A stretch of DNA of 64,000 bases from a virus. The stretch spans positions 36,747 to 100,746 of IMG/VR virus record IMGVR_UViG_3300023184_000062; one strand, 5' to 3'. The notes beneath the pieces were generated by a model. The model was not told where the DNA came from and did no database searches. It saw only the letters and a list, made by a program, of their open reading frames with translations. The position numbers and the translations under genes were made by a program. Positions 16,299 to 42,960 of this stretch are shown here, one piece after another. How positions within the stretch are numbered: position 1 is the stretch's first letter; each line of letters opens with the position of its first letter.

Positions 16299-17831
16299 AT
16301 GCGTGAACTTATTAATATCATTGAACAACTGAACGAAAGCACTGGACTAGCCGGGCGTAAACCAGGCGACGTTTTTAAAAACGAAAATGGTGAGGAGGCA
16401 ATATTTAATGATATTAAATTCTTCCCCGAAGGTGGAGGAAAATACTCGCCTGAAGAACTGGATCAGGCACTAGGTGAAATTGAACAACAAGTTCCAGGAA
16501 TTGTTTGGCAAAACAGTCGTTCTGGACGTACAGGTGGATTTGCAATAATCTCATTCGGTAACTTTGTTATTGGACAATATCTACAGGAAGTTAAACCTTC
16601 TATTACTGATAACAAAGTATCAAATACATTTACAGTAGATGGTGCAACTTATAAGTTCGGTGGCAAGGCTGCTGCCAAAGCTGATGCAGGATTAAGTCCA
16701 CAAGATTTGTTAACGGATAAAATTGATTTAACTATTCCAAAGATAATGAATCAGCTTGCTAGCAGTCTAGGAACTGATAACCCATTATACGCTTTAGCAC
16801 ATAATATCGCAATGGGACAACCATTGCCCATAACATTTGATGCTCCAGAGGGAGTTAGTTTTACTGCGTTCCGTGATTATTTCTGTGAAATATTACAACC
16901 AATAGCATTGCAAAAAGGTCAATACACGGGTAACGCAGGTGAGGCTGCAAATAAGTTTTTAGGTGGATCATTCCAAAAAACATTAATCAGTTTTGATGAT
17001 AGCAAAACCGCAGGACTAAGCGATAGTGTTATGTCTACTAGAGATGGTCGTAGCGTACTGGTAAGTACTAAAGGTGGCAAAGGTGCTACCGCTAGCGCAT
17101 CAAACTTAATTGACCAAATTGATAAGATTGCAGAAACGCCAGATGGTGGAAAATTCTTAAACAAACACAAACAAATAGTTGACTTACTACGTGAGATACA
17201 AGATGCAGGGCAAGCAGGTGCTCCATTAATGTTGGGTGTAAGATATGGTATCATCAGTCCTGATGATGCTGAAATGATTAGAGCATTTAAAAAGTTAAGT
17301 CCAGTTAGCTTAGACAATCTTGGTCAACTTGGTCTTAGCGAGAACTTAACAAAATTGGCACAATCACGTAACACAGATGATCCAGATAATGTAAACTTAT
17401 ATTATCACTTGATGGCAGCAGTGGCACACAAAGCTGCTGAGGAAGTTAATGACAAAACTAAATTCAGTTCTGCTGCTGCTGATATATTAAACAACGGTGC
17501 ATTAGTGCAAATGTATACCAAAGCAAATGAGGGCAAAGGTAAATGGACCTTGCAAGAATTCAATACAGTTTATCCAGGTAAAAGCATCAAGGGTGTTTAT
17601 CTCTCAGCAGGTAAAACATATTACAGCACTGGAATAAAGGGTAACTATACATTCAAAATTGATAAAGGTTCAGGTAAACCCAAAGATGATGAAGAAACAA
17701 CTAGCACACCTGCAGCAAGAGTAAAACGTGAAAAAAATGCAGGTAAAGATGAGTTAGCAACATCAGCAAGAGATATTGTTAATCCTGTTAATAAGCCAAG
17801 AGAAACTGGCACTAGGACTAAACGTAAATAA
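16299..17831 (+). CDS. Late protein with a CTS-like N-terminus; possible PD-(D/E)xK-like nuclease
   Basis: TAAATA 7 nt before ATG; MRELINIIEQLNE; FCE...GLSDS...VSTK. Confidence 0.55.
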   Translation: MRELINIIEQLNESTGLAGRKPGDVFKNENGEEAIFNDIKFFPEGGGKYSPEELDQALGEIEQQVPGIVWQNSRSGRTGGFAIISFGNFVIGQYLQEVKPSITDNKVSNTFTVDGATYKFGGKAAAKADAGLSPQDLLTDKIDLTIPKIMNQLASSLGTDNPLYALAHNIAMGQPLPITFDAPEGVSFTAFRDYFCEILQPIALQKGQYTGNAGEAANKFLGGSFQKTLISFDDSKTAGLSDSVMSTRDGRSVLVSTKGGKGATASASNLIDQIDKIAETPDGGKFLNKHKQIVDLLREIQDAGQAGAPLMLGVRYGIISPDDAEMIRAFKKLSPVSLDNLGQLGLSENLTKLAQSRNTDDPDNVNLYYHLMAAVAHKAAEEVNDKTKFSSAAADILNNGALVQMYTKANEGKGKWTLQEFNTVYPGKSIKGVYLSAGKTYYSTGIKGNYTFKIDKGSGKPKDDEETTSTPAARVKREKNAGKDELATSARDIVNPVNKPRETGTRTKRK

Positions 17832-17844
17832 GTAGGAGGTTATC

Positions 17845-18573: not shown

Positions 18574-18582
18574 CCATAATAG

Positions 18583-18611
18583 TTGCAACTAGCTAAATTT
18601 TCTGTTATACT
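18583..18611 (+). promoter_or_regulatory. sigma70-like promoter for clpP
   Basis: TTGCAA-N17-TATACT. Confidence 0.55.
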
Positions 18612-18630: not shown

Positions 18631-19218
18631 ATGAGTTTAGTACCAATGGTTTTAGAACAAACAAGCAAAGGTGAGCGTAGTTACGATATCTACAGCCGCA
18701 TGTTGCGTGACCGTGTCATTTTGCTTGAGGGCGAAGTACATGACCAAATGGCAAATCTTATTGTTGCCCAATTACTTTACTTAGAAAGTGAAGGAGCAAA
18801 GGATATCAGTCTTTATATCAACAGCCCTGGTGGTAGTGTAACTGCTGGTATGGCAATCTATGACTGTATGCAATTCATTAAACCTGATATTATGACTATC
18901 GTTATGGGTCAAGCATGTAGCATGGGTAGTTTGCTAGCACAAGCAGGTAGTAAAGGTAAGCGTTACATGTTACCCAATGCAAGGCACATGATTCATCAGC
19001 CGAGCGGTGGCGCACGTGGTCAAGCTACCGATATGCTTATTCAAGTAGAAGAAATCCTTGAGATGAAAAGGAACCTTACCAATATCTATGTTAAACACAA
19101 TAGTGCAGGAAAGACGTTTGAACAATTGACACAGGATATGGAACGTGATAACTTTATGTCAGCGGACCAAGCTGTTGCGTATGGGTTAGCTGATATTGTG
19201 ATGGAAAAACGAGAATAA
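18631..19218 (+). CDS. clpP: Clp protease proteolytic subunit ClpP
   Basis: [25 protein letters not shown] (catalytic Ser), MIHQP (His), ERD (Asp); start at MSLVPMV. Confidence 0.97.
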
Positions 19219-21486: not shown

Positions 21487-21711
21487 ATGCTTAAAAATGA
21501 TACACTACAATGGGGCGGGGTTTTCTTTGTTATCGCAGGGCATTTGCTCAATGCGATGGGAAATATGGACCCTTACAATATAATTGCTTTTGCTTTTGGG
21601 ACGATTTTCTTCCTAATTTGGGCGTTGCGTGTCCGCAACAACCCCCAAATTCTGGTGAATATTGTCTCAATCGCCATTTGTGCTAGTGGCTTATTCAGGG
21701 CCGCGACTTGA
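21487..21711 (+). CDS. Small 3-TM membrane protein
   Basis: Hydrophobic helices; stop inside the next -35 box. Confidence 0.7.
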   Translation: MLKNDTLQWGGVFFVIAGHLLNAMGNMDPYNIIAFAFGTIFFLIWALRVRNNPQILVNIVSIAICASGLFRAAT

Positions 21712-21769
21712 CATTAAATGGTTTTGGGTATATAATATAGACTTAGACAGTTAAGAACAGGACTAGAAA
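21708..21769 (+). repeat. Early promoter/leader/RBS repeat copy
   Basis: TTGACAttaaatggttttgggtaTATAAT...cttagacagtt...AGGA. Confidence 0.9.
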
Positions 21770-22042
21770 ATGCGTACAAAAACAGTGATTGAAGGCTTCA
21801 AAAATTCACAAAAATTCCGTGTGATTTTCAAGGGCGATGGCTCCGAGAACGACATTGGAATGTATATGACGGTCAAGCAAATGACCGAGCAATTTGCTAC
21901 AGTTAACGCCCGCGTATTGTGCTGGGATGCAGTACAACAGTTGGCAAACATGCGTTATTTTGCTAAGGTTGACGGAAAACCAGTGCCCTCCGGACTTGGA
22001 ACTACGATTCGGGGCAAGCAAATTCAAGTGGACCTAGTATAA
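21770..22042 (+). CDS. Early hypothetical protein
   Basis: Follows the promoter repeat. Confidence 0.7.
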   Translation: MRTKTVIEGFKNSQKFRVIFKGDGSENDIGMYMTVKQMTEQFATVNARVLCWDAVQQLANMRYFAKVDGKPVPSGLGTTIRGKQIQVDLV

Positions 22043-22260
22043 TGTACAATTTACTTTACATGGTTGTGGTAGCCCAGTCGCAAATGACATTTTTTCTGGG
22101 CAGTTACAATGATTTAAACAGTTGTCAGAATGCTATCCACGAAATTTACGCAACCAGACTAAATTTACCTAATCAACGCAACCCTGATTTGGAGAAAATT
22201 ATCCAAAAACAGATGGAATTAAACCGAGAATTTGTCTGTATTCCGGTGAAAAAAGGTTGA
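22042..22260 (+). CDS. Early hypothetical protein
   Basis: TAATG-coupled; stop inside the next -35 box. Confidence 0.65.
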   Translation: MYNLLYMVVVAQSQMTFFLGSYNDLNSCQNAIHEIYATRLNLPNQRNPDLEKIIQKQMELNREFVCIPVKKG

Positions 22261-22318
22261 CATTAAATGGGTTTGGGTATATAATACAATCTTAGACAGT
22301 TAATTAAAGGACAAGAAA
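22257..22318 (+). repeat. Early promoter/leader/RBS repeat copy
   Basis: TTGACAttaaatgggtttgggtaTATAAT...cttagacagttaattaaAGGA. Confidence 0.9.
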
Positions 22319-22636
22319 ATGACAGATACAGAATTTGACACTAAATTTGACTACTACGAGACCGTTCGTGAGGAACTAGGATTGAGTGCTATTTGGTCTA
22401 TCTTTGAAGTAGAAAATCTCAGCGAACCCCATCCGTTCAAGGATGCAAAAATTGTTTCTTACAAGGTCTATCATGGTAAGGAATATCAGATTGAAATCAA
22501 TGGTTCTACATGGGCCGCATTGTATGTTGCGGCTAATGCTGTTATTCGTGATAGCCGTGACTATCATGTTTTCATTGAAGCCTTCACCCCGAATGGTAAA
22601 AACCCTGAAATCCTAGAATTGCACACTGGTTCTTAA
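22319..22636 (+). CDS. Early conserved phage hypothetical protein
   Basis: TW..LY.AA...IR.S.D.H.FIE.F...LEL.TGS. Confidence 0.7.
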   Translation: MTDTEFDTKFDYYETVREELGLSAIWSIFEVENLSEPHPFKDAKIVSYKVYHGKEYQIEINGSTWAALYVAANAVIRDSRDYHVFIEAFTPNGKNPEILELHTGS

Positions 22637-22639
22637 TAG

Positions 22640-22702
22640 TTGACAATAAATGGTTTTGGGTATATAATAGAGTCTTAATCAGTTAATTACAGGAGTTTGA
22701 AA
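22640..22702 (+). repeat. Early promoter/leader/RBS repeat copy
   Basis: TTGACAataaatggttttgggtaTATAATagagtcttaatcagttaattacAGGAG. Confidence 0.9.
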
Positions 22703-23131
22703 ATGGGTACACGTTCACGAATTGGTGTTATGCATGGTGACAAACTGAAAAGCGTTTACTGTCATTGGGATGGTTATCTGTCAAACAACGGCAAGATCCT
22801 GCAAGCACACTATGATAGTGCTAAGGCAAATCATCTGGTATCGCTAGGCGACTTGTCTAGCTTGGGTACTACTATTGGCGAAAAGCATGACTTTGATACT
22901 CGCACCGATTGTTGCACTTTCTACGGCCGTGATCGTGAGGAAACTGGTGTTGACTTTACTGTGGATCAATCGTATGACGAGTTTTTGAGCAAGGATTATG
23001 ATTACGAGTACTACTACATTATGAACGATGGTGTATGGTATGTTGGTGTTGCGTATGAGGTTGACGGCATGGTGCCTGGACAACTGTATGTATTGGCTGA
23101 GCAATTGGCTAAGTTAACAGAGGAAGAATAA
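22703..23131 (+). CDS. Conserved phage early protein (MGTRS...YCHWDGY family)
   Basis: MGTRSRIG...SVYCHWDGY; YGRDR.E. Confidence 0.75.
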   Translation: MGTRSRIGVMHGDKLKSVYCHWDGYLSNNGKILQAHYDSAKANHLVSLGDLSSLGTTIGEKHDFDTRTDCCTFYGRDREETGVDFTVDQSYDEFLSKDYDYEYYYIMNDGVWYVGVAYEVDGMVPGQLYVLAEQLAKLTEEE

Positions 23132-23337
23132 TGAACGAACGAATTAAACAACTGTTGATCCAATCAGAGGTCTTTAACAAAGACGGCACTGTACTGAAAG
23201 ATGTGTGTGGATATGAATTGAATAAGTTCGCCGAGTTGATTGTGCAGAAATGTGCTGATATCGGTGAACGGTATGCTGACGGCAACTACGAAGTTCGTAA
23301 TCAGATTATGGCACATTTTGGATTGGAAGAAGCATAA
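23131..23337 (+). CDS. 'MNERIK...KFAELIV...HFG' paralog
   Basis: MNERIKQL...KFAELIVQKCA...HFGLEE. Confidence 0.7.
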   Translation: MNERIKQLLIQSEVFNKDGTVLKDVCGYELNKFAELIVQKCADIGERYADGNYEVRNQIMAHFGLEEA

Positions 23338-23678
23338 TGGAAGCTGTAGTAGAAACAACAGTATGGTCGGGTGATGTTCAGCCCAATCATAAATATTTGC
23401 TTGATGGTACCAAAGTACTTGCGTATATCAAGCAGGGTTCTACTACGCCACTCTATCTCAAAACTCCATTGACAATTGACAAGCGTGGTCGTAAGTTTGC
23501 CCCACTAAAAACAAATCCTTTCAAAAAGGTCAAAGAAAAGAGTACAATCGTCAAAGTGTCCGGTAGCAAGGGTCAGGTGTACTCTATTGACACAGAAGAA
23601 AAGTCATGCACTTGTCCTGGATATACATTCCGTGGCGCTTGCAAACATTTATCAGAGTTGACAACAAATGGTGTTTAG
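23337..23678 (+). CDS. SWIM zinc-finger protein
   Basis: GSKG..Y.I...SCTCPGYTFRGACKH. Confidence 0.8.
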   Translation: MEAVVETTVWSGDVQPNHKYLLDGTKVLAYIKQGSTTPLYLKTPLTIDKRGRKFAPLKTNPFKKVKEKSTIVKVSGSKGQVYSIDTEEKSCTCPGYTFRGACKHLSELTTNGV

Positions 23679-23686
23679 TGTATTAT
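23658..23686 (+). promoter_or_regulatory. Diverged early promoter copy
   Basis: TTGACAacaaatggtgtttagtgTATTAT. Confidence 0.65.
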
Positions 23687-23729
23687 AAGGGCTTAATCAT
23701 TATTGATTAAGACTTTACAGGACCTATAT

Positions 23730-24311
23730 ATGACATACATTGCTACAAAACTTGATTACATTCAATCACTGATTGATGAGGGAAATACTGTCGTTGTACA
23801 AAATCAAAGATACAACTGGGCAGGATCTGTGCATCGTGTGATTACTGAAAAAGATAAAGATATGGGTGAGGGCTTCTTTATCTCTGAGTGGTGGCATAAA
23901 CCTGCTAGGAAGCCTGGCAAGATTGGACCATACAGTAAAAAAGCAATTGATAAATTGCATATCGTAAAACTTAGTGACAAGCATTATGAAGTTTATCATA
24001 GTGAAAAAGATTATCTAACTAAGCCACGCATTGAAAAGACTAGTAAATGGTATGATGATTTGGAAGCAGATAAAAAACTTAATGCTTTCACATATTTTTA
24101 TACATACACTCTTTCAAATCCCAATGAACGTCTAAAGAAGAATCGTGTTAGAAATTCAGGCGTATCTATGTCAGGCCCAACTGAGCCAGACTTGAATGAA
24201 GTATTTGATAGAGTATCTAATTATACAAAACACTTAGGTGTAGTATCAAACTTGAAACTTGAGTGTGTGCGTACTTGGGAAGAAGAAAACACACATCAAC
24301 TTGCGAGATAA
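23730..24311 (+). CDS. Hypothetical protein
   Basis: AGGA SD, own promoter. Confidence 0.65.
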   Translation: MTYIATKLDYIQSLIDEGNTVVVQNQRYNWAGSVHRVITEKDKDMGEGFFISEWWHKPARKPGKIGPYSKKAIDKLHIVKLSDKHYEVYHSEKDYLTKPRIEKTSKWYDDLEADKKLNAFTYFYTYTLSNPNERLKKNRVRNSGVSMSGPTEPDLNEVFDRVSNYTKHLGVVSNLKLECVRTWEEENTHQLAR

Positions 24312-24317
24312 TCGGAA

Positions 24318-24346
24318 TTGACAATAAATCAAGTATAGTGTATACT
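24318..24346 (+). promoter_or_regulatory. sigma70 early promoter
   Basis: TTGACA-N17-TATACT. Confidence 0.75.
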
Positions 24347-24373
24347 ATTATTTTAATTACTTAGGAGTAGATT

Positions 24374-24742
24374 ATGAACGGATTTGATCGCATACTAGAA
24401 TTGAAACAGAATGGCGCAACATTGATTTCTCGCTTTTCGGAATACTACGGGCTAGAGATTTTTGATGTTCATAACCCACATGATAAAAAGTATATGAGTG
24501 GGTTGATTATGGAACTGGATGAAGATGACTATCTACTAAATTCTATGGCAGTAGATGAAACAGGTGTTCCAATGGAACTAAATATTACACACGAGGAAAA
24601 CGAAAATATCCCCGTAGGTAAAAAAGCTAGTGTTGTAGGAACATCAATAAGTCAATCAGATTTATTGGCATTACATCAAACTGGTCCAAACACATATGAT
24701 GTTTATATAAATGATAAACAAATGAAAAAAGCATTAAAATGA
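24374..24742 (+). CDS. Hypothetical protein
   Basis: AGGAG SD. Confidence 0.65.
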   Translation: MNGFDRILELKQNGATLISRFSEYYGLEIFDVHNPHDKKYMSGLIMELDEDDYLLNSMAVDETGVPMELNITHEENENIPVGKKASVVGTSISQSDLLALHQTGPNTYDVYINDKQMKKALK

Positions 24743-25581
24743 AAATAGCACTATGTAGTGATTTACATTTAGAATTTATGGATATCAACATTCAAAATAC
24801 AGAGAATGCTGATGTATTAATCTTGTCCGGCGATATTCTTGTAGCCGAGGACCTGCACAACCATCCTGAAGTGCATCCAATGGACCCAGTTAACATCCCT
24901 AACTTGGGTCGCAGACAATCAACTGCATTACGTTTCCGTGACTTTATGAAACGCTGTAGCTTTCAATTCCCGCATGTAGTAGTAATTGCAGGCAATCACG
25001 AATTCTATCATGGTAACTGGAAAGCCAGTATCCAGTACCTGCGTGATGAATATAGTAAGTTTCCAAACATCTATTTCCTTGAGCAAGAACTTAAGGTCAT
25101 TAATGATGTGACATTTATTGGTGCAACATTGTGGACTGACTGTAACAAAGGTGACCCTCTTACGCTTCATGCATTGGGTGATATGATGAATGACTTTAGA
25201 ATCATTCGTAATGATGAACTTGGTTTTACTAAGTTACGTCCTGCTCATGCTATGCATCGCCATCACCGCACACTTGGTTATTTGAAAGCAGTATTGCCTG
25301 ACTTGAAAGATAAGAAGGTTGTATTTGTTGGTCACCATGCACCTACCTTGAATAGCATACATGAAAAATATCGCAATGATCAATTGATGAATGGTGGTTA
25401 TGCTAGTGACTTGAGCGAACTTATACTAGATAATCCACAGATTAAACTTTGGACGCATGGTCACATGCATGATCCTTTTGACTACATGGTTGGTGAAACC
25501 CGCGTGGTTTGCAATCCTCGTGGTTATGCAGGACATGATGCACAAGCCGATGTGTTTGAAGTAAAGTTTTTGGACATCTAA
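24739..25581 (+). CDS. Calcineurin-like metallophosphoesterase (intact)
   Basis: SDLH, GDI, GNHE, GATLW, HHAP, HGHMH, NPRGY. Confidence 0.92.
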   Translation: MKIALCSDLHLEFMDINIQNTENADVLILSGDILVAEDLHNHPEVHPMDPVNIPNLGRRQSTALRFRDFMKRCSFQFPHVVVIAGNHEFYHGNWKASIQYLRDEYSKFPNIYFLEQELKVINDVTFIGATLWTDCNKGDPLTLHALGDMMNDFRIIRNDELGFTKLRPAHAMHRHHRTLGYLKAVLPDLKDKKVVFVGHHAPTLNSIHEKYRNDQLMNGGYASDLSELILDNPQIKLWTHGHMHDPFDYMVGETRVVCNPRGYAGHDAQADVFEVKFLDI

Positions 25582-25691
25582 GTATGTTGTCTGGGCAACA
25601 AAATGTCCAATATATGTTGCATTAACAACAGTATTATTGTATAATTGTTCTACATCGTGCGAACGATGAATCATTTAATAAGGAAAACAAA

Positions 25692-25949
25692 ATGACTTTA
25701 ACTAAACAAGCCCGTGTCCTAGAGGCACTACAATCTGGTGAGCAACTTACCGCAAAACAAATCGCCGCACGTTTTGGCGTAAAGAACCCAACCGCTACTG
25801 TTAGCGACTTGCGTTTCGCTGGTTATGCAGTTTATGCAAACAAGCACACCGACACCAAAGGTCGTACTTCTACTAAGTACCGTTTGGGTCGTCCAAGCCG
25901 TGAAATCGTAGCTGCTGGCTACAAAGCAATGGCTCTTGGTCTAGTCTAA
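25692..25949 (+). CDS. Winged helix-turn-helix DNA-binding protein
   Basis: LTAKQIAARFGVKNPTATVSDLR..GY.VY.N...KYRLG. Confidence 0.75.
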   Translation: MTLTKQARVLEALQSGEQLTAKQIAARFGVKNPTATVSDLRFAGYAVYANKHTDTKGRTSTKYRLGRPSREIVAAGYKAMALGLV

Positions 25950-25969
25950 TCTCGGGATGAGATGAGCAG

Positions 25970-25995
25970 GAAAGGGTGCATTGCACCCTTTCTTT
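25970..25995 (+). terminator. Rho-independent terminator
   Basis: GAAAGGGTGCA-T-TGCACCCTTTC followed by TTT. Confidence 0.8.
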
Positions 25996-26042
25996 ACTTG
26001 TAAAAAAATCAATTTTGTGTTATAATTAACAAAGGAAATAAT

Positions 26043-26267
26043 ATGTATATTACACTAACAAACGCAACACCCGCACACCGCGGAAACAAACTAGCAATTG
26101 ATGGCAAACTAATTGCTACAATTCATAATTCAACTATTACCCGTGAAACAGGTGAAACTGAAAACGTTACATTCGTTTTTTGTCCACCGCATGGTACTTG
26201 GGAAGTTGTTGAATCATTGGAAGAAGTAGTTGCTGAACTTAACAATGATATTTGGAATCGTAAATGA
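26043..26267 (+). CDS. FlbD-like small protein
   Basis: M.ITLT...I...LI.TI...V.ESLEEVV resembles the FlbD family. Confidence 0.45.
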   Translation: MYITLTNATPAHRGNKLAIDGKLIATIHNSTITRETGETENVTFVFCPPHGTWEVVESLEEVVAELNNDIWNRK

Positions 26268-30332: not shown

Positions 30333-33300
30333 TTAAGTAAAGGTTATTCCACCATCTGTGGTGTCAAACGAGATATCACCCATTTCAACAAATCTAGGTA
30401 CAGCAAATACCCAACCTGAATTTGTACCGCCATTGGTTGATGTAGCAGCAATCCATCCAGCGCCACCTGTTGCAGTGCTACGACTAATTGACATGTATTG
30501 TGTATTAGCAATACCGCTACTCATTGATAGTGTGTGATTGGCTGCGGTTGCTGAAGTTATTGTAACTAAGTTACCGGCGTTTCCGGATAAACTAAAATAC
30601 TTAAAAGTAGTTGTAGTTGCTGCTGTAAATGTTACTGATGCTGGTTGTGTAGTATTTGTTATATTATAGAATATATTATTACCGGTTATAGTTAATGCAC
30701 CTGCACCACCTTGATTGATTATTGGATAAGTTCCACCGCTACCTACAAAAGTTTTTGCTGATGCACTAGTCATACTTATAGTGAAGCCAGTAAATGTTAT
30801 CCCCGGTGACATTACAGAAAATGGTGAAAGTGTGTTAGCTGTAGCTGCACCAACGTTTGTAACAGTAAAGTTATTGTTTGAGTAATCTGTTAAAAAACTG
30901 TTAACAGGGGTTGACAACAACAAAGACGTTTGCGTTCCTGTGATAGCACTTATATTTGTGCCTGCACTTTGCGTTGGTAACAAAGGTTTAGTGGGTACAG
31001 TAAAATTACCTGTATATACTGCCACGGTGTTAACAATTCTAATATTGGTTATGTAACCTTGGTATTGAAAATTAGCTGTAGCCGGAGTATCATAACCAAT
31101 AAACAATGTAGGGGAAGATGAAGCTGGTTGTGTAATTGTACCTGGAGTTCCACTCAACGATCCATTAATATAAAAGCTAACACTGTTAGCATTTGAAACT
31201 ATCGCAACATGATACCAAGTGTTCAGTGATATTGCTCCAGCTGCTGAAGTAATTCCTGCTGCGCCATTTGGAACAGCTACACTTATAGTTCCATCGTTGT
31301 TATACCCCACATCAAATGCAGTATTTGCTCCGTTTGTTCCAAACATAAATATACGGCATTGATTACCTGCCGTTGGGGTAGCAGTAGAATACATCCAAAA
31401 TTCTATAGTCCAAGTGCCACCGGATAAATTGAATGCACTTGATGCAGCGAGACTTAATCTTTGATTAACTGTATTAAACAACACACTACCGGTTGATCCA
31501 AAATTCCATGCTGTGGCGCCTGCGCCTGAAATAGTATATGTAGTGTTTGTTCCTATAATTGAGCGAGGGAATGGCCCTGTACTAGCAAATGATGCACTTG
31601 TTACATTAGAGGTGTTTGTGTTTATTGTGCCTTGTGTTAGTGTCAATGCTCCCGACAATAATAAATTTTCAGTAAGTTGTATATTAGCATCAGCAACGTT
31701 AACAGTTAAACCACCAAATGTATATCCGTTATTGATAATACTAGTTGTAGTAATTTTAGGTACAATTGTTACCCCTGTATGAGTACCATTGCTGTATAAT
31801 GTAAATGCTTCAACTACGTTTACTGATGTAGCCGGGGTAGTATATGCCGCACTGATAAGGTTAAAGACATTGAACCAACTAGCTGTAGTAACCGTAAGAA
31901 CACTAGAACCGCCTAAATATAGATTAGGTGCGTTAGTTGTTGATCCGCCGGTCGTACCAAATACTAGTGTTGCTGTATTAGAACCCGGGCAATAGAATAA
32001 GCCAGAACCAGTATATGTAAAGTTAGTAGCAATTGCCATATTCAATACGGTTTGTGCTGCTGTACTATTAGTAAGAGATATGTATGATGGGGGTAGAGGA
32101 TTAGTTGACGGATTATTGTAATATATCGGAGTATAACTAGTAGTACCAAAATTAATTGTACGAGTATTAGCATTAGTTGAACTGAATATAGAACAAGTTA
32201 ATACAGAACCTTCAGTTAATGTTAATGTGCCGGCAGTAAAGGTATACGTTCCACTAGAACCTGCACTACCTAATGACATTGATTTATTTAATGTTACTGT
32301 TCCTGCTGTGTGCGTGAATAAGGGTAAAACAGTGTTATTTAAATTAGCAGTACCACCATATGTAAAAGAACCACTAGTCAACACAAAACTTACAGAGGGG
32401 TTTAATGTTCCTCCATTCATAATAAATGCCGGACTGTTAACAGTAAATGTTGTGCAATTTAATATTCCGCTATCTAGTGTTAATGTACCTGCAGTATATG
32501 TAACTGTACTAGAACATGTAACGGTCGCCCCCGTGCCTGTAAAATCTAATGTACCGGCTGTTATTGTAAGAGTTGTACAATTGAATGTATAGCCTGGATA
32601 AGGATTTATTGTTCCAGTAGTGTTTATTGTTAATGCACCAATTGTCTGTGTTACTGTGTTATAACGATTCCACAAATATCCATTACCGCGCATTGTAATA
32701 GTAACAGCAGAGTATACACCGCCGCCCATAGTTAAATTACCAACAATGTTAAGTGCAGTTACTGCGCTTGTATAACTAGTATCTCCTAAGTAAAGATCCT
32801 TAAACCAACTACCTGTGGTTATTGTAGCAACAGATGCCCCGGTGGTGAAATATAAACTTGGGGCAGTAGTTATTGAGCCGCCTGCTGTATTTCCAACAGA
32901 GACTGTTCTTGTATTAGCCATATCCGCAACTTGAAAATATCCTGCACCAGTTGGAGTGAAATTAGTAAGTGTAGCCATATTCAATACAACAGTTGCTGCG
33001 GTAGTATGTGTAAGTACAATAATACCTGTATTAGCAGTTGTACCAAAAGTAATGGCACGAGTATTTGTATTTGATGAAATGAATATACCGGTTGCCAATT
33101 GAATGCCAGGGGTTATATTAAGTGTGCCTGCTGTGAGTGTATAAGTTCCGGTGGTGGTTAATGCATAACTCTGTAGGAAAGTAACTGTTCCGGCTGTATG
33201 AGTAAATGTAGGAACTGCTGTCATAGTGCCTGTACTTGCGCCATATGTAAATGAACCACTAGTTATAACAAAACTTACAGATGGAGTTATTGTTCCACCA

Positions 33301-34445
33301 TAAAATGTGAAATTTGCACCAGCAACAGTAAACGTTGTACAGTTTATAGCACCAATATTAACTAATGATCCGCCACTATAAGTAAATGTACTTGAACACG
33401 TTATTGTACTGCCATTCCATAAATCAAGTGTTCCTGCGGTTAATGTACATGTAGTACAAGCAATAGTAACCGCTCCCCCTGCATATAGGCTTACTGTACC
33501 ACTGGTATTGATAATCAATGGACCTATACTATTGTTAGTCTGCATATAACCCGTACCACGCATAGTTACAGTCATGTTAGTAAGGACACATGTACTTTGA
33601 GCAGTATATAATTGATTTAAGTTAAGACTGGTTGCAGCAATAGTAAAAGAACAAGTACCTAAGTTAAGTTGATTGAACCAACTACTAGTTGTTATAGTAG
33701 CAATAGATGCACCACTAGATAAGTAAAGATTTGGTGCATTAGTTATTGAACCACCTGTTGTACCAAATACAAATGTTCTAGTAGTTGACATTACTGATTG
33801 AAAACCACCCGTAACCATGCCTAAATCGTATGAACTACTAGTCCAAGTAAAGCCAGTAGCAGTAGCTATGTTCAATACTGTTTGAGCAGCAGTAGTGTGT
33901 GCTAGATTGATATTGTTTGCACCAAATGCAATTGAACGAGTGTTAGTATTACTTGAACTGAATATACCAGTGGTCAGATCAAATCCATTAAGAATAAGCG
34001 AACCGTTAGTTAGTGTTGTGGTAATAGTTGCGCCTGTTGTTAATGCGCTACCCAAACTCCATTCGCCACCTACTCCATTGAATGTAATAGGAGCATTTAT
34101 TGTTGTTCCGCCGGTAGTAATTGTTTGACCAGTAGTTGTAGCATTGAATGTAATAGCACCAGTACTAGTCCAAACAGTACCTGCAACTAATGACATTGAA
34201 CCATTGACTTGAAGTGTAGGTGTAGTACCCGTTAAGAATGAAACCGCTCCTGCTGATACAGTAATACTTAAACAGGCTAATGCACCTGTCATAATGACAT
34301 TATAAGTAGCAGATTGATCAAATATAACGTTATCACTGGCAGTCGGTACACTAAATCCACCGGCGCCGCCTGAGGTATCAGACCAGTTAGTAGTACTGGA
34401 TGTATTCCAAGTACCGGTGCCACCTCTCCAATAACGATCTGCCAT
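30333..34445 (-). CDS. Large virion fibre/adhesin (beta-helix-like repeats plus a LamG/ConA domain)
   Basis: Thr/Gly/Ser-rich; repeated IF.SSN.NTR.I.FG modules; WTIEFW...WYHVA...YING...GYI.N.RI; late promoter. Confidence 0.75.
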   Translation of the reverse strand: MADRYWRGGTGTWNTSSTTNWSDTSGGAGGFSVPTASDNVIFDQSATYNVIMTGALACLSITVSAGAVSFLTGTTPTLQVNGSMSLVAGTVWTSTGAITFNATTTGQTITTGGTTINAPITFNGVGGEWSLGSALTTGATITTTLTNGSLILNGFDLTTGIFSSSNTNTRSIAFGANNINLAHTTAAQTVLNIATATGFTWTSSSYDLGMVTGGFQSVMSTTRTFVFGTTGGSITNAPNLYLSSGASIATITTSSWFNQLNLGTCSFTIAATSLNLNQLYTAQSTCVLTNMTVTMRGTGYMQTNNSIGPLIINTSGTVSLYAGGAVTIACTTCTLTAGTLDLWNGSTITCSSTFTYSGGSLVNIGAINCTTFTVAGANFTFYGGTITPSVSFVITSGSFTYGASTGTMTAVPTFTHTAGTVTFLQSYALTTTGTYTLTAGTLNITPGIQLATGIFISSNTNTRAITFGTTANTGIIVLTHTTAATVVLNMATLTNFTPTGAGYFQVADMANTRTVSVGNTAGGSITTAPSLYFTTGASVATITTGSWFKDLYLGDTSYTSAVTALNIVGNLTMGGGVYSAVTITMRGNGYLWNRYNTVTQTIGALTINTTGTINPYPGYTFNCTTLTITAGTLDFTGTGATVTCSSTVTYTAGTLTLDSGILNCTTFTVNSPAFIMNGGTLNPSVSFVLTSGSFTYGGTANLNNTVLPLFTHTAGTVTLNKSMSLGSAGSSGTYTFTAGTLTLTEGSVLTCSIFSSTNANTRTINFGTTSYTPIYYNNPSTNPLPPSYISLTNSTAAQTVLNMAIATNFTYTGSGLFYCPGSNTATLVFGTTGGSTTNAPNLYLGGSSVLTVTTASWFNVFNLISAAYTTPATSVNVVEAFTLYSNGTHTGVTIVPKITTTSIINNGYTFGGLTVNVADANIQLTENLLLSGALTLTQGTINTNTSNVTSASFASTGPFPRSIIGTNTTYTISGAGATAWNFGSTGSVLFNTVNQRLSLAASSAFNLSGGTWTIEFWMYSTATPTAGNQCRIFMFGTNGANTAFDVGYNNDGTISVAVPNGAAGITSAAGAISLNTWYHVAIVSNANSVSFYINGSLSGTPGTITQPASSSPTLFIGYDTPATANFQYQGYITNIRIVNTVAVYTGNFTVPTKPLLPTQSAGTNISAITGTQTSLLLSTPVNSFLTDYSNNNFTVTNVGAATANTLSPFSVMSPGITFTGFTISMTSASAKTFVGSGGTYPIINQGGAGALTITGNNIFYNITNTTQPASVTFTAATTTTFKYFSLSGNAGNLVTITSATAANHTLSMSSGIANTQYMSISRSTATGGAGWIAATSTNGGTNSGWVFAVPRFVEMGDISFDTTDGGITFT

Positions 34446-34451
34446 TTACTT

Positions 34452-34483
34452 TCCTCTTTATATACTAATATTTATCAAGAGGA
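34452..34483 (-). promoter_or_regulatory. Late promoter inside an SD-occluding hairpin
   Basis: TCCTCTT-gaTAAATAttagtatata-AAGAGGA. Confidence 0.65.
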
Positions 34484-35737: not shown

Positions 35738-35815
35738 GTATTTTCTCCTTATTATTGTACATACTATGTATTTAGTGATATAATTGTTATAAACCCATTA
35801 CAGATAAATATTATG

Positions 35816-36388
35816 ATGCGTATACGTGAATTATTTGAAGAAATTGAAGATCAACCCGAACAAAAGATGCCACATCTATACCTAGATATGGATGGGGTAC
35901 AGGCTGATTTCTTTGGTGCTTGGGCACAAAAACACGGTGTTTCTACGTATAAAGAAATCCCAAGACGGGAAGATGATATACAAGCATTAGCAACATCTAG
36001 CGCAGAAAATGTATATCAATTCTTTAAAGATTTGAAACCCTTAACAGGTGGTATGCGTATTGTTATGTGGTTAAAAGATAATAAAATTCCCTATACTGTA
36101 TTATCTGCTCCATTACGTGGACCTTTTTCTAGTGCTAGCGTAAAGGCTAAAAAAGATTGGCTGGATGAGTATAATCCGGGCACAAGTGGCGACGCCATTT
36201 TTACTGCTGCAAAATTTAAATATGCCACTCAAGATGGTGAACCAAATGTCTTAGTTGATGACTTTGGTAAATATTTAGATGCTTGGAGTAATGCAGGTGG
36301 TATTGCTGTCAAGCATGAAGATAGTGGAGTTGCTAGTACTATCCATGAACTTGAAAAGATTTATGCCCCGTTTATCCATAAGAGTTGA
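35816..36388 (+). CDS. 5'(3')-deoxyribonucleotidase (NT5C/HAD) with a CTS-like N-terminus
   Basis: YLDMDGVQADF, LSAP, K..W, LVDDF, W..AGG; MRIRELFEEIE; TAAATA 35805-35810. Confidence 0.85.
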   Translation: MRIRELFEEIEDQPEQKMPHLYLDMDGVQADFFGAWAQKHGVSTYKEIPRREDDIQALATSSAENVYQFFKDLKPLTGGMRIVMWLKDNKIPYTVLSAPLRGPFSSASVKAKKDWLDEYNPGTSGDAIFTAAKFKYATQDGEPNVLVDDFGKYLDAWSNAGGIAVKHEDSGVASTIHELEKIYAPFIHKS

Positions 36389-37475: not shown

Positions 37476-38195
37476 TTAAAGGATAAGTTTTTCTAACATC
37501 CACCCGATTGAATTAATTGTTTCTTTGGTACTCGGTGGACTGCTTTTATGAAATGCTACTTTTTTACCAAGATTGTATCGCAAAGTATCTGAACTTATAA
37601 CATGCTCTTTACAAAAGTTAGCCAAATTGCTAGTGACAAAAAATTCTTCAATAGGAGAAGTTATCTTCCATTTATTTCTTCTATTAACTACAACTCTAAC
37701 TTTTCTAGGGTTTGGGTTATCCTGTTTGGTCTTCAACCCTTTAGTAATGCTTTCTGCTGTTTGTGTATTATAACTGCCATCGTTGTTTTTAAGTCTAGTT
37801 GCAGTGGCCTTTTTTCGGGCCTCTGGCGTACCACATTTGAATATTCCACCAGTTTTCCTCTTAGTAGCAATGGCTTTGTCAATAGTTTCTTTAGTCACTT
37901 TTCTACCGGAAACCCCATCTCCCCCGTCGGTTTTGTTTCTCAAAATCCCTGTACCCATATCTTTGCGACCATACCACTTGATAAGTCGGCGCTCAATTGC
38001 TAATGACCCTACTTCACTTAAATTATGTTCAATAATTATTATCTTAGATGTATCTACCGGCGGATGAACTTCCCCTTTACCTTTAGACCAAGCGCGGTCC
38101 AAATAACCTTTACCAATATAGTACGGGGTGTTATCATGTCGTAGATAGGCATACACATAAAACCCTGTAGGGTTTAATTTTTTACTAAATATCAT
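37476..38195 (-). mobile_element. Free-standing GIY-YIG (Seg-like) homing endonuclease gene
   Basis: FYVYAYLR...PYYIGKG...R...E..LI...L.N.TDGGDG; basic C-terminal DNA-binding region; antisense insertion with its own late promoter. Confidence 0.85.
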
Positions 38196-38273
38196 TGCTG
38201 GTGCTCCTTTATAAGTTATAGCATTAGGGTAGTCGGAGAGGTAAGAGACTCGTGGACTACACTTTTATTTATC
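38196..38273 (-). promoter_or_regulatory. Late promoter and structured leader of the homing endonuclease gene
   Basis: GATAAATA, GTAGTC...GACTAC hairpin (38229-38260), TGCT...AGCA pairing over AAGGAG. Confidence 0.6.
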
Positions 38274-38286
38274 ATAGGAAACTAAA

Positions 38287-38499
38287 TTGAAAGAAGAAGG
38301 AATTAAGATGGACGGTAAGGTAATTGATGTATTACCCAATGCTGTTTTCAAAGTACAGATGAATCCAAGTAATGTAATTACTGGTTACATCAGTGGTCGT
38401 ATGCGTAAGAACGACATTAAAATATTGCTTGGTGACACAGTGGAAGTGGAGTTTTCTCCATATGATTTGACTAAAGGACGCATTACTCGGCGCAGATAA
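38287..38499 (+). CDS. infA: Translation initiation factor IF-1
   Basis: LPNA.FKV...ISGRMRKN.I.IL.GD.V.VE.SPYDLTKGRI; TTG start. Confidence 0.95.
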   Translation: MKEEGIKMDGKVIDVLPNAVFKVQMNPSNVITGYISGRMRKNDIKILLGDTVEVEFSPYDLTKGRITRRR

Positions 38500-38520
38500 C
38501 AATACGCATAAATACATATT

Positions 38521-39075
38521 ATGCGTGACATTATTACATTGCTTGAGGAAAAGAGTAAGCCTCAAGACATAGAAATTATACCCCTAAACTTCACCCCGGC
38601 TGAGGTTAGCCCCGTATTATCCAAAGATACACTAGATTTACATTACGGGAAATTAGCCCACGGTTACGCTGAACGCTACAACAACAAAGAGGGTGATAGA
38701 GATTTCAACTATGCAGGTGCTTTCCTGCATAACACATTATTCCCGCAGTTCCGTGAAGTAAGAAACAACAACAAGCCCAACGGCCCTATGTACGGGTTCA
38801 TCAATAAACACTTTAGCGACTATGACAACATGAAGTCTGAGTTTGAGACTGAGGCTATGAAGATACAGGGCAGCGGTTGGATATACTTGGCAACGGACGG
38901 GAAGATAAAGATAATACATAATCATCAAGTACGCAATGACATATTGTTGTTGATTGACTGGTGGGAACATGCGTTTTTATTAGATTACGGCAGTGATAAA
39001 AAGAAATACATCAAAGAACAGTGGAAGATCATTAATTGGAATGTTATTAACACTAGATGGGGAAAGAGTTTATAA
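38521..39075 (+). CDS. Fe/Mn superoxide dismutase with a CTS-like N-terminus
   Basis: LHYGK, FLHN, QGSGW, DWWEHA; MRDIITLLEE; TAAATA 6 nt before ATG. Confidence 0.9.
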   Translation: MRDIITLLEEKSKPQDIEIIPLNFTPAEVSPVLSKDTLDLHYGKLAHGYAERYNNKEGDRDFNYAGAFLHNTLFPQFREVRNNNKPNGPMYGFINKHFSDYDNMKSEFETEAMKIQGSGWIYLATDGKIKIIHNHQVRNDILLLIDWWEHAFLLDYGSDKKKYIKEQWKIINWNVINTRWGKSL

Positions 39076-39085
39076 AGAGGAAAAC

Positions 39086-39967
39086 ATGAAAAAACTACTT
39101 ACAGCAGGATTTATAGCACTATTATTATTAGGTGGATGCGGCAAACAAGCGACACTAGGATCATCAACATTTACCCCTGGGTTTGATAATGATGACAAAA
39201 CTTGTACCACGGCCCCTATCATTAGTGGCAATAGTGTTACGTTTGGTAATGATACTACAAGTTGTGGTGGCAGAGTTGTATCTACGCAAGGATACAAGAA
39301 CATTACACAAATTCGTGCTACAGCAGACTTCAGTAAGTTAACAAGCAACTTTGTTACTAACACATTCTATATGATTAATAATCCTAATACTCCAGGATTA
39401 CAACCAAAAGGATCAAACTATTGTGATGCTGGTGGGAATAACGCAAGTTGGAATTGCCAAGAAATTGATTTCTTTGAAGGCAATAAGAATGTAGTATTCC
39501 AACATACAATGCACATTGGTGATGGTAGCAGTAGTGCTCCACAAAACTTTCAGTTTAGTTATTCAACAACTGATGACCAATGTTTTGTAAATCTAACTCC
39601 AACCACAGGATTAGTATCATGGAATGGTATTGATAAATCTAAACCAGTTGATATCATTATTGATATGGATGCGAATGGGATGACTGTAACATTCTCACAG
39701 GGCACAATCAAAACTATTGTTTACAAGATGGGATCAGGATATTCAGGTTCAACAACATTTACTACAGAACAATTACAACGCTGGCAACAAAGCAGAGCGC
39801 AGGGATATTGGTTGAATCTTAGCATGTGGCAAAGCATGTCGTGGTCTCCTGGAGCACCGCAAGGTTTCTATAATTGGACTTGCCCGTACGGTAATCTATG
39901 CACCACTGGCACATCATCATACTTTAAAGTTTACAACATTCAAGTAGATGCTGAGGGAACTATCTAA
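39086..39967 (+). CDS. Lipoprotein glycoside hydrolase, clan B (GH7/GH16-like)
   Basis: Lipobox LGG-C; YCDA and CQEIDFFEGN (E-x-D-x-x-E); GAGG SD. Confidence 0.7.
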   Translation: MKKLLTAGFIALLLLGGCGKQATLGSSTFTPGFDNDDKTCTTAPIISGNSVTFGNDTTSCGGRVVSTQGYKNITQIRATADFSKLTSNFVTNTFYMINNPNTPGLQPKGSNYCDAGGNNASWNCQEIDFFEGNKNVVFQHTMHIGDGSSSAPQNFQFSYSTTDDQCFVNLTPTTGLVSWNGIDKSKPVDIIIDMDANGMTVTFSQGTIKTIVYKMGSGYSGSTTFTTEQLQRWQQSRAQGYWLNLSMWQSMSWSPGAPQGFYNWTCPYGNLCTTGTSSYFKVYNIQVDAEGTI

Positions 39968-39976
39968 GGTATTACC

Positions 39977-40768
39977 ATGAGAGCAAAAGAATTTTTAACT
40001 GAATTATTTCAAAGCCATAGCGGCTATGAAATAAATTCAGTGCCGTATGGTGATACAGTACAGAACGGACAGCTTAAATATGTCTTTGTTACCGATCCTG
40101 ATGATAAAAATGAATATGGACGTCAAGGTGAAGTAGTAATCAAACAAATCAAAGATGCCAATGTAGATTTAATCTTTGTAGAGTTTAACATTGAAGGCAG
40201 CACTGATACATCAGGGCTAGGTGATCAATTCAAAATTTTAGGTGCGGTGGTAAAAGCAGTTAATAGATATTGTAGAATATACAAGCCCAAATACATTGTG
40301 TTTGAAACAGAGGATCCTAAAAAGTTAAGCATGTACAAAGCAATGGTGCGTAGACAAGTATTTCCGGGATATCAAACTATTGTACAAAGTTTGGATGATT
40401 ACAATAAACTTATAGCAACTGACAAGGAACTTACTAATCAAATTGGACCTAGACTTGCCGGGTTTGCTGATGAGATGGTGATGTTACAAAGAACAGAAGG
40501 TGCTGATAATATAAAACCACCAGAAGTAAAAGGCCAGTATGTAATTTATGGCCTGAACAAATATAGAGGTAAAGTATTTCATAGATTAGATGCACCGTCA
40601 CAAGATAAAGCACTACAGTTTGCCCGTGAATGGATAGAACAAAACTCAGCGAGATTGGGCGAACGTTGGGGGCTTGACAGAGGTAGACACTGGGACCTAG
40701 CAAAAGATACACATGGTGAGTTTGCCCCTGCCCCTGCAGGTCAATATTCAGTAGTTGGACAAACCTAA
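39977..40768 (+). CDS. Putative capsid-targeted internal protein
   Basis: MRAKEFLTE N-terminus resembles the T4 CTS; coupled to the next gene. Confidence 0.6.
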   Translation: MRAKEFLTELFQSHSGYEINSVPYGDTVQNGQLKYVFVTDPDDKNEYGRQGEVVIKQIKDANVDLIFVEFNIEGSTDTSGLGDQFKILGAVVKAVNRYCRIYKPKYIVFETEDPKKLSMYKAMVRRQVFPGYQTIVQSLDDYNKLIATDKELTNQIGPRLAGFADEMVMLQRTEGADNIKPPEVKGQYVIYGLNKYRGKVFHRLDAPSQDKALQFAREWIEQNSARLGERWGLDRGRHWDLAKDTHGEFAPAPAGQYSVVGQT

Positions 40769-42960
40769 TGAGAGCAAGTGAATTCACTAACTTTACTTAT
40801 AAAACTGAACCATACGAAGGTTGGAATGGTGACGGGTTAGTTGTTCGTGCTTATGATGGTAGCAATGAAGTTGGTCATGTTATTTTTGAACCCACAGAAG
40901 ATGATAATACACAATGGTATGCTGTTGATGTTGAAGTAGAAGAACCTTATCAACGCAAAGGTATTGCTAGTAAAATGTATGACATTGCTAAAAAAGCAGC
41001 AACACAACAGGGTGCTATCATAGTAAAAAGTCATACACAAACTGATGCTGGTCGTGGCTTATGGCAAGATAAACTAGTTTGGGAAGCAGAAGCAAACAAG
41101 ACTACATTGAACAACATGTACGGCGGACATTTCCCTGACCGTGATGAAGAATTTTGGGACTATGTTACTCCTCGTGAACTTGGGCAAGCATTGACAGTTG
41201 AAACAATGCCTAAGCACAAAGTGTTGATTATATTACTCAGTCAATATCGTGCGGAACACATTGATGATATAACTGATATGCTTGATGATGACCAACAAGA
41301 GATTGTTCAATCATATGTTAATGATCCAGCACTATCAAGCAAAACAATAGTTGTTGCTAATAACAAAATTATTGACGGGAATCATCGTGCATTGGCAGCA
41401 GCGATTAAAGGTGTTCCTATCAATTATGTTAATTTAGCAGAATTAGATGAAGAACCGATAGATGAATCTACTAACGATGCTGCGAAATCCTGGATTGAAA
41501 AAGTCTATTCCAAATATCCACACACCATGCAGAACAATCATGTTATGGTCTGGGGTGAAGGTGATGAACAACAGTTTGCTATGTTTGAATTAACACCTAG
41601 TTTTAGCAAGCGCGGTGCAGTAGAAGTCAAGTGGTTTCAAGCATATCCATTACGTCAAGGCGTTGGCAGTCGTGCTATGAAAGAATTACAGGCATTAGCC
41701 CGTGAAGATGGCATTACACTAACATTGTTTCCTTGGGACAAGGGTCAAGTAAGTCAGGCTAAACTAACGAAGTTTTACAAAGGGCAAGGCTTTACTCCAA
41801 CTGTTAAAGGCGGTAAGGCTATGTCATGGGCGCCTGAATTAAACGAAGAACTTAGAGTTGATGTGCCCAATGAAGAATGGTTGCAAGACGCAATTGACTA
41901 TGCTAAAAGTAAAAGTCCCGATCGTTACGGCTTACCCTACATGGGCAAAACTACTGCCACCGTTAGGAATATTGACGTTCCACTACGTATATTAAGACGA
42001 ATACCAGGTATGCGTCAAGAGCAATCAAAGATACGACACCACGATCTTGCTGCTATTAGAAAAATAATGAGTACCACTGGTAAACTACCACTACACGGAC
42101 ATACTGGACAAGAATATAAACCTTTTATTAATGTAGCATACGATGGCAGTGCCTGGGTCAATGAAGGTAATCATAGGATCATGGCCGCGGCTGAACTTGG
42201 ATGGGAGTCATTACCAGTAGAGATTTCATATTTTGATGGTGGTGAAAGAATTAAAGATGGGCCCATGTATCCTGGACGTATTGGATTGGGAGCGCCACCT
42301 TTAGATGAAGCAGAAGTAGGCACAACAAATGCCAAAACAATTGCTAATCAATTAAAAGCAGCTGGTTATTCAAATGTAGGTACAGGTGCTGATTCTACTG
42401 TATGGGCCAAGGATGATAGTCATATCATTAAGATATTGATGCCAGAAGATTTGGGCACTAAAGCAGAACAAGTATTTCGTAAGTTTTATGAATTTGCTAT
42501 GTCACATCAAGATTTAGAATGTATGCCAAGATTTAATGAGGTAAACACAGTTGATATTAATGGTAAAGATTATACACAGATTGAGATGGAAAGATTAGCA
42601 CCCATAGAAAAAGGCACTTTCATGGAAGGTGTTATTTGGTTCTTTAGTGATTTTTGTCAAGCACGAGAGTCATGGGATAAAGTAGACCATGCTATGGGAT
42701 TATCAGATACTTGGGAATGGTATCCGTATGCTAAGAGTTCAAAGTCTATTGCTAATGTTTATGTTAGACAATGGCAAGATTTAATGTATGATAAAAAATC
42801 ATACTCCATGTACAGACAGCTATATAATGTAATGAAGTTATTATATATCACAGGTACAATTAACAAATTCGGATGGGATTTGCATACGGCAAATGTCATG
42901 CAACGAAGTAACGGTCAACCAGTAATTATTGACCCGTGGTTTAGCGAAGGAACATCATAA
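40768..42960 (+). CDS. Polyvalent protein: GNAT - ParB/Srx - GNAT - ParB/Srx - protein kinase-like
   Basis: [11 protein letters not shown]; IIDGNHR; [10 protein letters not shown]...FY...GF; VNEGNHR; [23 protein letters not shown]. Confidence 0.85.

Follow-up and report, generated by a model that had tools for sequence, protein, structure and literature searches.

A capsid-targeting-like N-terminal tag on unrelated proteins of an uncultured freshwater jumbo phage

We analyzed 64,000 nt of viral DNA (the window), which correspond to bases 36747–100746 of one linear viral contig of 100,746 bp (IMG/VR record IMGVR_UViG_3300023184_000062) and belong to a T4-type jumbo phage from fresh water that has not been cultured. 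Five unrelated proteins encoded in the window begin with a short peptide of 9–13 residues (the tag), and we observed that this tag occurs far more often than expected by chance. Judged by its analogy with phage T4, we consider it probable that the tag is a capsid targeting sequence (CTS) of the T4 type which addresses proteins to the virion as cargo; the tagged enzymes would probably be packed in the virion and delivered together with the DNA. Such an address tag had been proposed in an earlier note on this DNA. It stands as the best explanation of the likeness to the T4 CTS, the prohead protease of related phages, the coincidence of tag ends with polyprotein joints, the types of cargo, the late transcription units and the superoxide dismutase (SOD) of the cultured phage PA5oct, and it is from these that we infer packaging.

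The contig is 29% complete according to CheckV and is thus a piece of a phage genome of roughly 350 kb; it holds 162 open reading frames (ORFs) with 31,731 residues. As relatives we used 80 IMG/VR contigs retrieved via the SOD gene, among them five near-complete genomes of 303–367 kb; the relative G001 (364,247 bp, with terminal repeats) is 100% complete. A prohead protease of the gp21 type (PF03420, Peptidase_S77) was found in all five near-complete relatives with 95–99 bits; in G001 its gene lies at 285722–286357 (minus strand). In G001 the genes follow a T4-like order of portal, small proteins, protease, scaffold-like protein and gp23-type capsid protein (330 bits), and the same genome gave a weak match to a gp55-like late sigma factor (E about 1e-5). 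By capsid protein the closest cultured phages are Vibrio phage 2.275.O, Pseudomonas phage PA5oct and the RaK2/121Q-like coliphages (63–67% identity); the major capsid protein of PA5oct is 66% identical, which places this phage in the same capsid lineage. Near-identity searches of DNA and protein against cultured phages returned no match for window positions 38000–43000 or for the 730-aa and 510-aa proteins described below.

Form and conservation of the tag

All five ORFs which the earlier note had named were located on the plus strand at the positions it had given. The ORF at 16299..17831 encodes a 510-aa protein starting with MRELINIIEQLNE, a tag of 13 residues (16299..16337) with I-I-E at positions 7–9 and L-N-E at positions 11–13. 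A 5'-(deoxy)nucleotidase of the NT5C type with the tag MRIRELFEEIE is encoded at 35816..36388 (an additional in-frame ATG lies just before its start, at 35813), and a Fe/Mn SOD with the tag MRDIITLLE↓E (L7, E9; the arrow marks the presumed cut here and below) at 38521..39075. The remaining two are a 263-aa protein (39977..40768), which has the tag in its canonical form (MRAKEFLTE) and an N-terminal DUF6934-like module that in relatives is fused to a kinase or to GH19, and a modular polyprotein of 730 aa (GNAT ... GNAT ... PolyVal-type kinase; 40768..42960) with the truncated tag MRASEF. The claim that the tag precedes the recognizable domain holds for the nucleotidase (HAD domain from residue 21) and for the SOD, in which a linker extends to residue 17 and the alignment to PDB 1ues begins at residue 18 (1ues residue 4; E 6e-23) and spans the metal-ligand segments H-x-G-K, H-N and D-x-W-E-H; it fails for the 730-aa protein with its truncated tag. 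Pfam assigned PF02777 to the SOD with 82 bits, and PF00081 reached 20 bits, which is under its cutoff. The SOD tag is conserved in 80 relatives and the NT5C tag in 11 orthologs. The tag of the 730-aa protein looks truncated by a deletion (window 40768–40810): here MRASEF joins TNFTYKTE, and the relative L029 reads MRAKEFINE followed by about 20 residues and then GNFTYTAE.

The 510-aa protein belongs to no Pfam or PHROG family. We found 683 homologs; the best 120 of the 683 are 60–97% identical, and in these the start is kept as MR[DE]hhxxh[ED]xLxE↓STG (h, hydrophobic) with M1, R2, L11 and E13 invariant. Its core (about residues 170–460) weakly resembles PD-(D/E)xK restriction endonucleases, and its C-terminal tail is basic. 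An AlphaFold2 model reached a mean pLDDT of 75.7 with low confidence for residues 1–14, and in a fold comparison (VIA) the top rows were all restriction endonucleases, at Z 4–5 only. Foldseek gave no significant match for the model (E about 0.6), the Atlas lead (0.88) was weak, and comparison of the 510-aa and 263-aa sequences with solved structures yielded nothing useful. The label 'nuclease-like' of the earlier note thus comes down to a weak fold match of a model, which suggests that the protein may be restriction-nuclease-like.

In its general form the tag reads M-[R/K]-x-x-E-[F/I/L]-[I/L]-x-E or is a close variant with [I/L] at position 7 and E at position 9, and it heads 10 of the 162 contig ORFs, five of them in the window. 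The canonical consensus is M-R-A-x-E-F-[I/L]-x-E, and a second sub-form, MR[DE]hhxxhE, is common to the SOD and the 510-aa protein. The pattern [RK]x(1-2)E[FIL][FIL]xE has six matches in all contig residues, five of which start at residue 2–3. The looser register M-[RK]-x4-[ILF]-x-E9, which takes in the SOD and the 510-aa protein as well, fits 6 of the 162 contig N-termini, where 0.23 are expected (p 1e-7), and 10 of the 518 N-termini of the complete G001, where 0.7 are expected (p 4e-9). We also trained a scoring matrix on the six tags of the window's contig alone and applied it to the independent G001: eight of its 518 N-termini scored at least 13 bits, and 5 of 106,875 internal positions reached 12 bits, which looked like chance matches on inspection, none having the full motif. 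A degenerate DNA pattern for the tag matched 25 times in the five near-complete relatives and not once in a reversed control, and a slightly stricter DNA pattern matched at least 120 stretches of IMG/VR. The scan of the contig and its relatives with a motif built from the tags, which the earlier note had suggested, found the tag at N-termini only, on 285 distinct proteins that fall into 105 cargo clusters (from 2.6 Mb of related contigs). The notion of one leader shared by the five ORFs is therefore borne out by statistics beyond chance, with the amendments that it comes in two sub-forms and is truncated in the 730-aa protein.

Positions 1, 2, 3, 5, 6 and 9 of the tag are nearly invariant, in contrast to the free positions 4 and 8. 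At Ala3, Glu5, Phe6, Ile/Leu7 and Glu9 the codons differ synonymously while the amino acids stay, so that it is the peptide which is under selection. A search for members of the main cargo family by cargo sequence alone gave 104 homologs, of which 100 carry the tag. Glu stands at position 9 (P1) in 269 of the 285 tags (94%), and the P3 residue of these 269 is Ile in 199, Leu in 48 and Val in 15 (97% I/L/V). A Sec/Tat signal peptide was considered separately and ruled out: the tag comprises nine residues, of which two or three are acidic, and has no hydrophobic run, whereas such a signal has a hydrophobic core of 7–15 residues behind a basic N-region.

A CTS of the T4 type is a peptide of about 10–19 residues at the very N-terminus, and that of T4 reads MKTYQEFIAE (PMC8442874). 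With a gap of one residue the E-F-[I/L]-x-E of the tag aligns with its E-F-I-A-E, so that Phe, Ile/Leu and Glu are kept and the equivalent of Tyr4 is variable. In the T4 CTS, targeting involves residues 4 and 7, and processing involves residues 8 and 10; with Asp at position 10 the peptide still targets but is no longer processed (PMC9026906). The T4 protease gp21 cuts after Glu in I/L-x-E (PMC12991175), and T4 Alt is cut at ITE-6 and LTE-619 (PMC5694885). Three T4 genes match the register M-K-x3-E-F-I-x-E, and the published CTS stands at the start of two of them.

Polyprotein joints and cargo range

Stand-alone tagged ORFs of relatives align inside polyproteins of the contig, and the alignment begins just past their tag. 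The 730-aa protein has four such module joints, all on the plus strand. At V-W-E↓A (LVWE↓; 41077..41085) the counterpart is the tagged ORF MRAKEFISE↓SKTTLNN of relative L003, and at I-D-E↓S (PIDE↓STNDAAKSW; 41458..41466) it is MRAIEFLIE↓SNDAAKAW of relative L012. The joint L-N-E(E)↓L (LNEE↓; 41839..41847) corresponds to tagged ORFs of relatives L047 (MRAKEFITE↓) and L029, and L-D-E↓A (PLDE↓AEVGTTNAK; 42301..42309), which lies before the kinase module, to MRASEFAE↓AEEDTPNAK of relative L014. DNA homology to relative L003 stops at 41839 and a second break lies at 42300–42304, both of them at joints of this protein. The same relation was observed outside the window: SFSE↓GENWS of an 802-aa protein of the contig is matched by the starts of numerous small genes of the DUF6321 type that carry the tag, and the start of a 930-aa protein matches EEQLDE↓LSPDTLA within a G001 polyprotein of 1140 aa. 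We compared 81 distinct joints, which are partly non-independent as many are orthologous, and found hydrophobic-x-E within two residues of the Glu9 equivalent in 58 of them (72%). At random positions it was found in 7.7 ± 2.6 of 81 (about 9%), the highest count among 1000 trials being 18. Glu stands exactly at P1 in 39 of the 81 joints, against a background of 7%.

Five further tagged proteins are encoded upstream of the window on the same contig. They start with MKTNEFLTE (930 aa, LysM), MLTEHIIIE (194 aa), MRAREFIAE (128 aa, ART-PolyVal), MNFKELHE (679 aa, GP88 domain) and MRFSEIISE (802 aa, DUF6321). Twenty Pfam families were assigned among the cargo clusters. Their representatives include enzymes or binders of the cell wall (GH19 in 10, LysM in 4, SLT in 2, PG_binding_1 and Phage_lysozyme2), host-modifying domains (ART-PolyVal in 3, ADPrib_exo_Tox, GNAT in 6 and Kinase-PolyVal) and others (ParB_N, NT5C, DUF6321 in 8 and DUF6934 in 5). 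A repertoire like this has been described for polyvalent proteins, for which packaging in the head and injection are predicted (PMC5512222). The largest cluster comprises 109 members of about 126 aa, often in tandem and with a median isoelectric point of 8.1, and recalls the internal proteins of T4.

In about 35 of the 80 relatives the SOD gene directly follows the stop codon of the GP88 polyprotein gene (...LLL[K/R]H and stop), a slot taken by a tagged ADP-ribosyltransferase in the window's contig; since both share it, the SOD is part of the same cassette system. Contig positions 21597–26422 (minus strand) hold an operon of two polyproteins of the DUF6321 and GP88 types, with repeated G-V-A-E-G linkers, followed by the tagged ART-PolyVal gene. 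Between the conserved sod and the gene at 42960, the window has a hypervariable segment (39075–42960), in which relatives carry different sets of tagged modules; the internal-protein loci of T-even phages are plastic in much the same way.

Late expression and weighing of explanations

The earlier note had placed TAAATA directly before three of the tagged ORFs, and ATAAATA motifs indeed lie at 16285..16291, 35804..35810 and 38508..38514 (all plus strand), 7, 5 and 6 nt ahead of the ATGs at 16299, 35816 and 38521, with no Shine–Dalgarno sequence between motif and ATG at 16299. The ORFs at 39977 and 40768 lie in the sod unit, downstream of its putative late promoter, as the note had likewise described. 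We regard TAAATA as a late promoter by analogy with the T4 late promoter TATAAATA, and the gp55-like sigma factor of relatives agrees with this. With unit membership determined by a simple operon walk, which is a heuristic, 9 of 10 tagged genes of the window's contig fall into TAAATA-headed units compared to 71 of 152 other genes (p 0.008), and in G001 11 of 12 compared to 166 of 506 (p 5e-5). The enrichment behind TAAATA that the note had proposed to test exists for units; in relatives the motif lies at most 20 nt upstream in 15 of 118 tagged genes, and most of the others are internal to operons. ATAAATA occurs at 20 sites of the window, where 34 ± 5.6 are expected in shuffles, an under-representation that agrees with a functional promoter word being avoided within genes.

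We observed that TAAATA-type motifs end 4–7 nt before an ATG, without a Shine–Dalgarno sequence, at 5618–5632, 16285–16301, 35804–35818, 38508–38523, 48290–48306 and 50240–50258 of the window, which suggests that late mRNAs are leaderless or nearly so, from tagged and untagged genes alike. Another ATAAATA (34469–34475, minus strand) precedes the gene of a 1370-aa protein (30333–34445, minus strand), for which a weak ConA-like lectin/glucanase match was found in two other phage or virus records and which is probably a fibre or receptor-binding protein.

The cultured relative PA5oct encodes a SOD homolog, gp223 (37% identity over residues 1–182), in which the extension MNDSIKKYISIAE↓AASS... stands before the fold and ends in I-A-E↓A. 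It carries the note ESI-MS/MS (electrospray ionization tandem mass spectrometry) in RefSeq (NC_071039), as does gp333, a protein of 73 aa that starts with MKINDIITE↓G, adjoins the portal gene and was the only match of the tag matrix in PA5oct. The mass-spectrometry set comprises 93 proteins from purified lysate and includes virion-unrelated enzymes by the authors' own count (PMC7318152). In G001 the counterpart of gp333, a small ORF after the portal gene, starts with MKLMEMFDA and lacks a cut motif. A gene annotated as ribosomal protein S21 lies at 170955–171161 of PA5oct directly after a ClpX-like gene and a few genes upstream of the SOD homolog.

Several observations weigh against a CTS. In T4 itself gp61.1 (NC_000866, 18966–19130, minus strand; 54 aa, uncharacterized, primase region) starts with MKTFKEFIKE, so that a CTS-like start by itself is no proof of packaging. 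The tags of the SOD and the 510-aa protein are unlike the canonical tag at positions 3–6, and hydrophobic-x-E is a short and common motif. Orthologs of the 730-aa protein start with MRANEFITE↓ES..., but in this protein the GNAT module adjoins MRASEF directly and the cut site is lost; by T4 precedent its targeting could persist, although this end would not be cut. Some of the related DNA had been fetched by the tag pattern, which inflates the counts and leaves the G001 test unaffected. Profile searches of the window's own contig found neither the gp21-type protease (PF03420) nor the gp23-type capsid protein (PF07068); this contig is a 29% fragment without the head module, and the gp21-type protease is therefore known from relatives only. 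The canonical tag pattern was not found in PA5oct or Vibrio phage 2.275.O. The particle preparation of PA5oct also contained thymidylate synthase and ligase (PMC7318152), and because plainly non-structural enzymes were present in it, detection there is weak evidence. For the window phage and its close relatives, packaging and cleavage are thus predicted by analogy.

Other explanations can be set against these data. That the start is a nucleic-acid or translation feature, aiding initiation on leaderless late mRNAs or re-initiation after an upstream stop, appears very unlikely to us. It would agree with the many tagged genes without a Shine–Dalgarno sequence, with TAAATA ending exactly 5 nt before the ATG in thirteen tagged genes and with AGA as codon 2 in 77 of 95, which yields an ATGA that can overlap an upstream TGA; but the amino acids are fixed while synonymous codons vary at positions 3, 5, 6, 7 and 9, many untagged genes stand equally close behind TAAATA, and the tag end is interchangeable with internal polyprotein joints, which are sites without initiation. 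The tag could also be a recombination joint only, used for swapping cargo modules between genomes and without a role in packaging. Modules are swapped exactly at the tag and the joints, with the homology breaks at 41839 and about 42300, and the region from sod to 42960 is hypervariable. However, a stretch of 27 nt in which third positions vary and two codons are free is a poor substrate for homologous exchange, and both the fit to the gp21 motif and the restriction to N-termini of late genes would be left unexplained; we therefore hold this to be unlikely as the sole role, although it is compatible with a CTS as a side benefit.

The phage's own Clp system might recognize the tag as an N-terminal signal and so time the destruction of the enzymes. 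A ClpP of cellular type (Pfam CLP_protease, 260 bits) is encoded at 18631–19218 (plus strand) of the window, two genes after the 510-aa gene, and PA5oct encodes ClpX, ClpS and a ClpP-like 'head maturation protease', with ClpS right before the SOD homolog. Still, we know of no Clp recognition motif, the ClpX N-motifs included, that matches M-R-A-x-E-F-I-x-E; hydrophobic-x-E at internal joints, the injected-effector cargo and the likeness to the T4 CTS would also go unexplained, so that we consider a Clp signal very improbable. None of these three alternatives explains jointly the conservation of the peptide, its restriction to N-termini, the gp21 fit, the equivalence with joints and the types of cargo. 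A further alternative is a propeptide that is cut by the prohead protease or another protease from proteins which do their work late in the infected cell and never reach the next host. A late benefit from SOD and nucleotidase is conceivable, and the particle data for PA5oct are not stringent (PMC7318152). Against this, gp21 of T4 is understood to be active within proheads and kept in check by autoproteolysis (PMC12991175, PMC9026906), and ART, SLT, GH19 and PolyVal kinases are families described for injected proteins (PMC5512222), which makes a late-acting propeptide improbable.

If the tag is a CTS, late-made proteins would bind the prohead scaffolding core via the tag and become enclosed by the shell. 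A gp21-type prohead protease would then cut after the Glu of the terminal [I/L/V]-x-E and also at the same motif between polyprotein modules, so that mature enzymes would be freed in the head. At infection they would exit with the DNA and act before any phage gene is expressed, and the expected actions are breaching of the wall, modification of host proteins, destruction of nucleotides or superoxide and perhaps cutting of unmodified DNA. To a broader statement we would give about even chances: in this freshwater jumbo lineage of the T4 type, a nine-residue address and hydrophobic-x-Glu joints may form a plug-and-play grammar of loading, cutting and delivery, open to each module that gains the header, singly or in a chain, for a payload of more than 100 families that would include the first virion-delivered SOD and 5'-nucleotidase as well as a restriction-nuclease-like protein. 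The last of these would be tolerable because the phage's own DNA carries 7-deazaguanine, and the shuffling of genes would be explained by module borders coinciding with the protease motif. Should the tag work as in T4, the injected payloads of uncultured jumbo phages could be read from sequence. Each headed ORF and each module between hydrophobic-x-Glu joints would be a candidate effector of the first minute, and dozens of families of unknown function would become a defined and testable class. Metabolic enzymes such as SOD and nucleotidase would be predicted to travel in virions, and the T4 capsid-loading tag, already used in the engineering of T4 particles, would extend to a distant clade with much larger heads.

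Comparison with known systems

The system closest to our observations is the CTS of T4. In both cases a short N-terminal peptide ending in I/L-x-E stands on unrelated, non-essential and variable head proteins (for the phages described here, putative ones), and the sequences nearly align (MKTYQEFIAE in T4, MRAKEFLTE and MKTNEFLTE here). Both phage groups have a gp21-type protease, a gp22-like scaffold and a gp23-type capsid protein, and they share late expression and an ADP-ribosyltransferase among the cargo (compare Alt). The tag described here differs in being one residue shorter and in its Arg2-Ala3. It also differs in scale, with at least 105 cargo clusters compared to a handful in T4, and in the cargo itself, which comprises SOD, an NT5C nucleotidase, wall hydrolases, kinases and a restriction-nuclease-like protein. 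Moreover, the cut motif here also joins modules of long polyproteins, which are split into separately tagged genes in relatives, and its carriers are freshwater phages that have not been cultured, have genomes of about 350 kb and are known here from sequence. PA5oct, although of the same capsid lineage, has no family of canonical tags, and its particle study, as far as the available text goes, treats neither cleavage sites nor a targeting role (PMC7318152).

Polyvalent proteins (Iyer, Burroughs, Anand, de Souza, Aravind 2017, PMC5512222) are similar in their multidomain chains of ART-PolyVal, Kinase-PolyVal, GNAT, ParB and wall-lytic domains, and they are predicted to be packed in the head and injected (PMC5512222). 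In our data GNAT and kinase domains occur together in the 730-aa protein, and ART-PolyVal, Kinase-PolyVal, ParB_N, LysM and SLT were found in tagged proteins. For polyvalent proteins, however, processing was proposed mainly by their own zincin-like or assemblin-like peptidase domains (PMC5512222), whereas no such domain is present here, the joints fit the prohead protease motif, and each gene begins with a CTS-like tag, a feature absent from the description in PMC5512222. The phiKZ-like giant phages (SPN3US, 201phi2-1 and phiKZ; PMC5694885, PMC10052503) have a protease of a homologous family that cuts after Glu, and many of their head-internal proteins are processed and ejected. Their propeptides, in contrast, are cut at A/S/G-x-E, with a small P3 residue instead of the I or L found here, and are mostly long (over 100 residues) rather than one shared short tag. 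Taken together, the principle of a CTS combined with gp21 has been known since 1996, and the novelty here lies in the scale, in enzymes as cargo, in the equivalence of tag end and polyprotein joint, and in the lineage.

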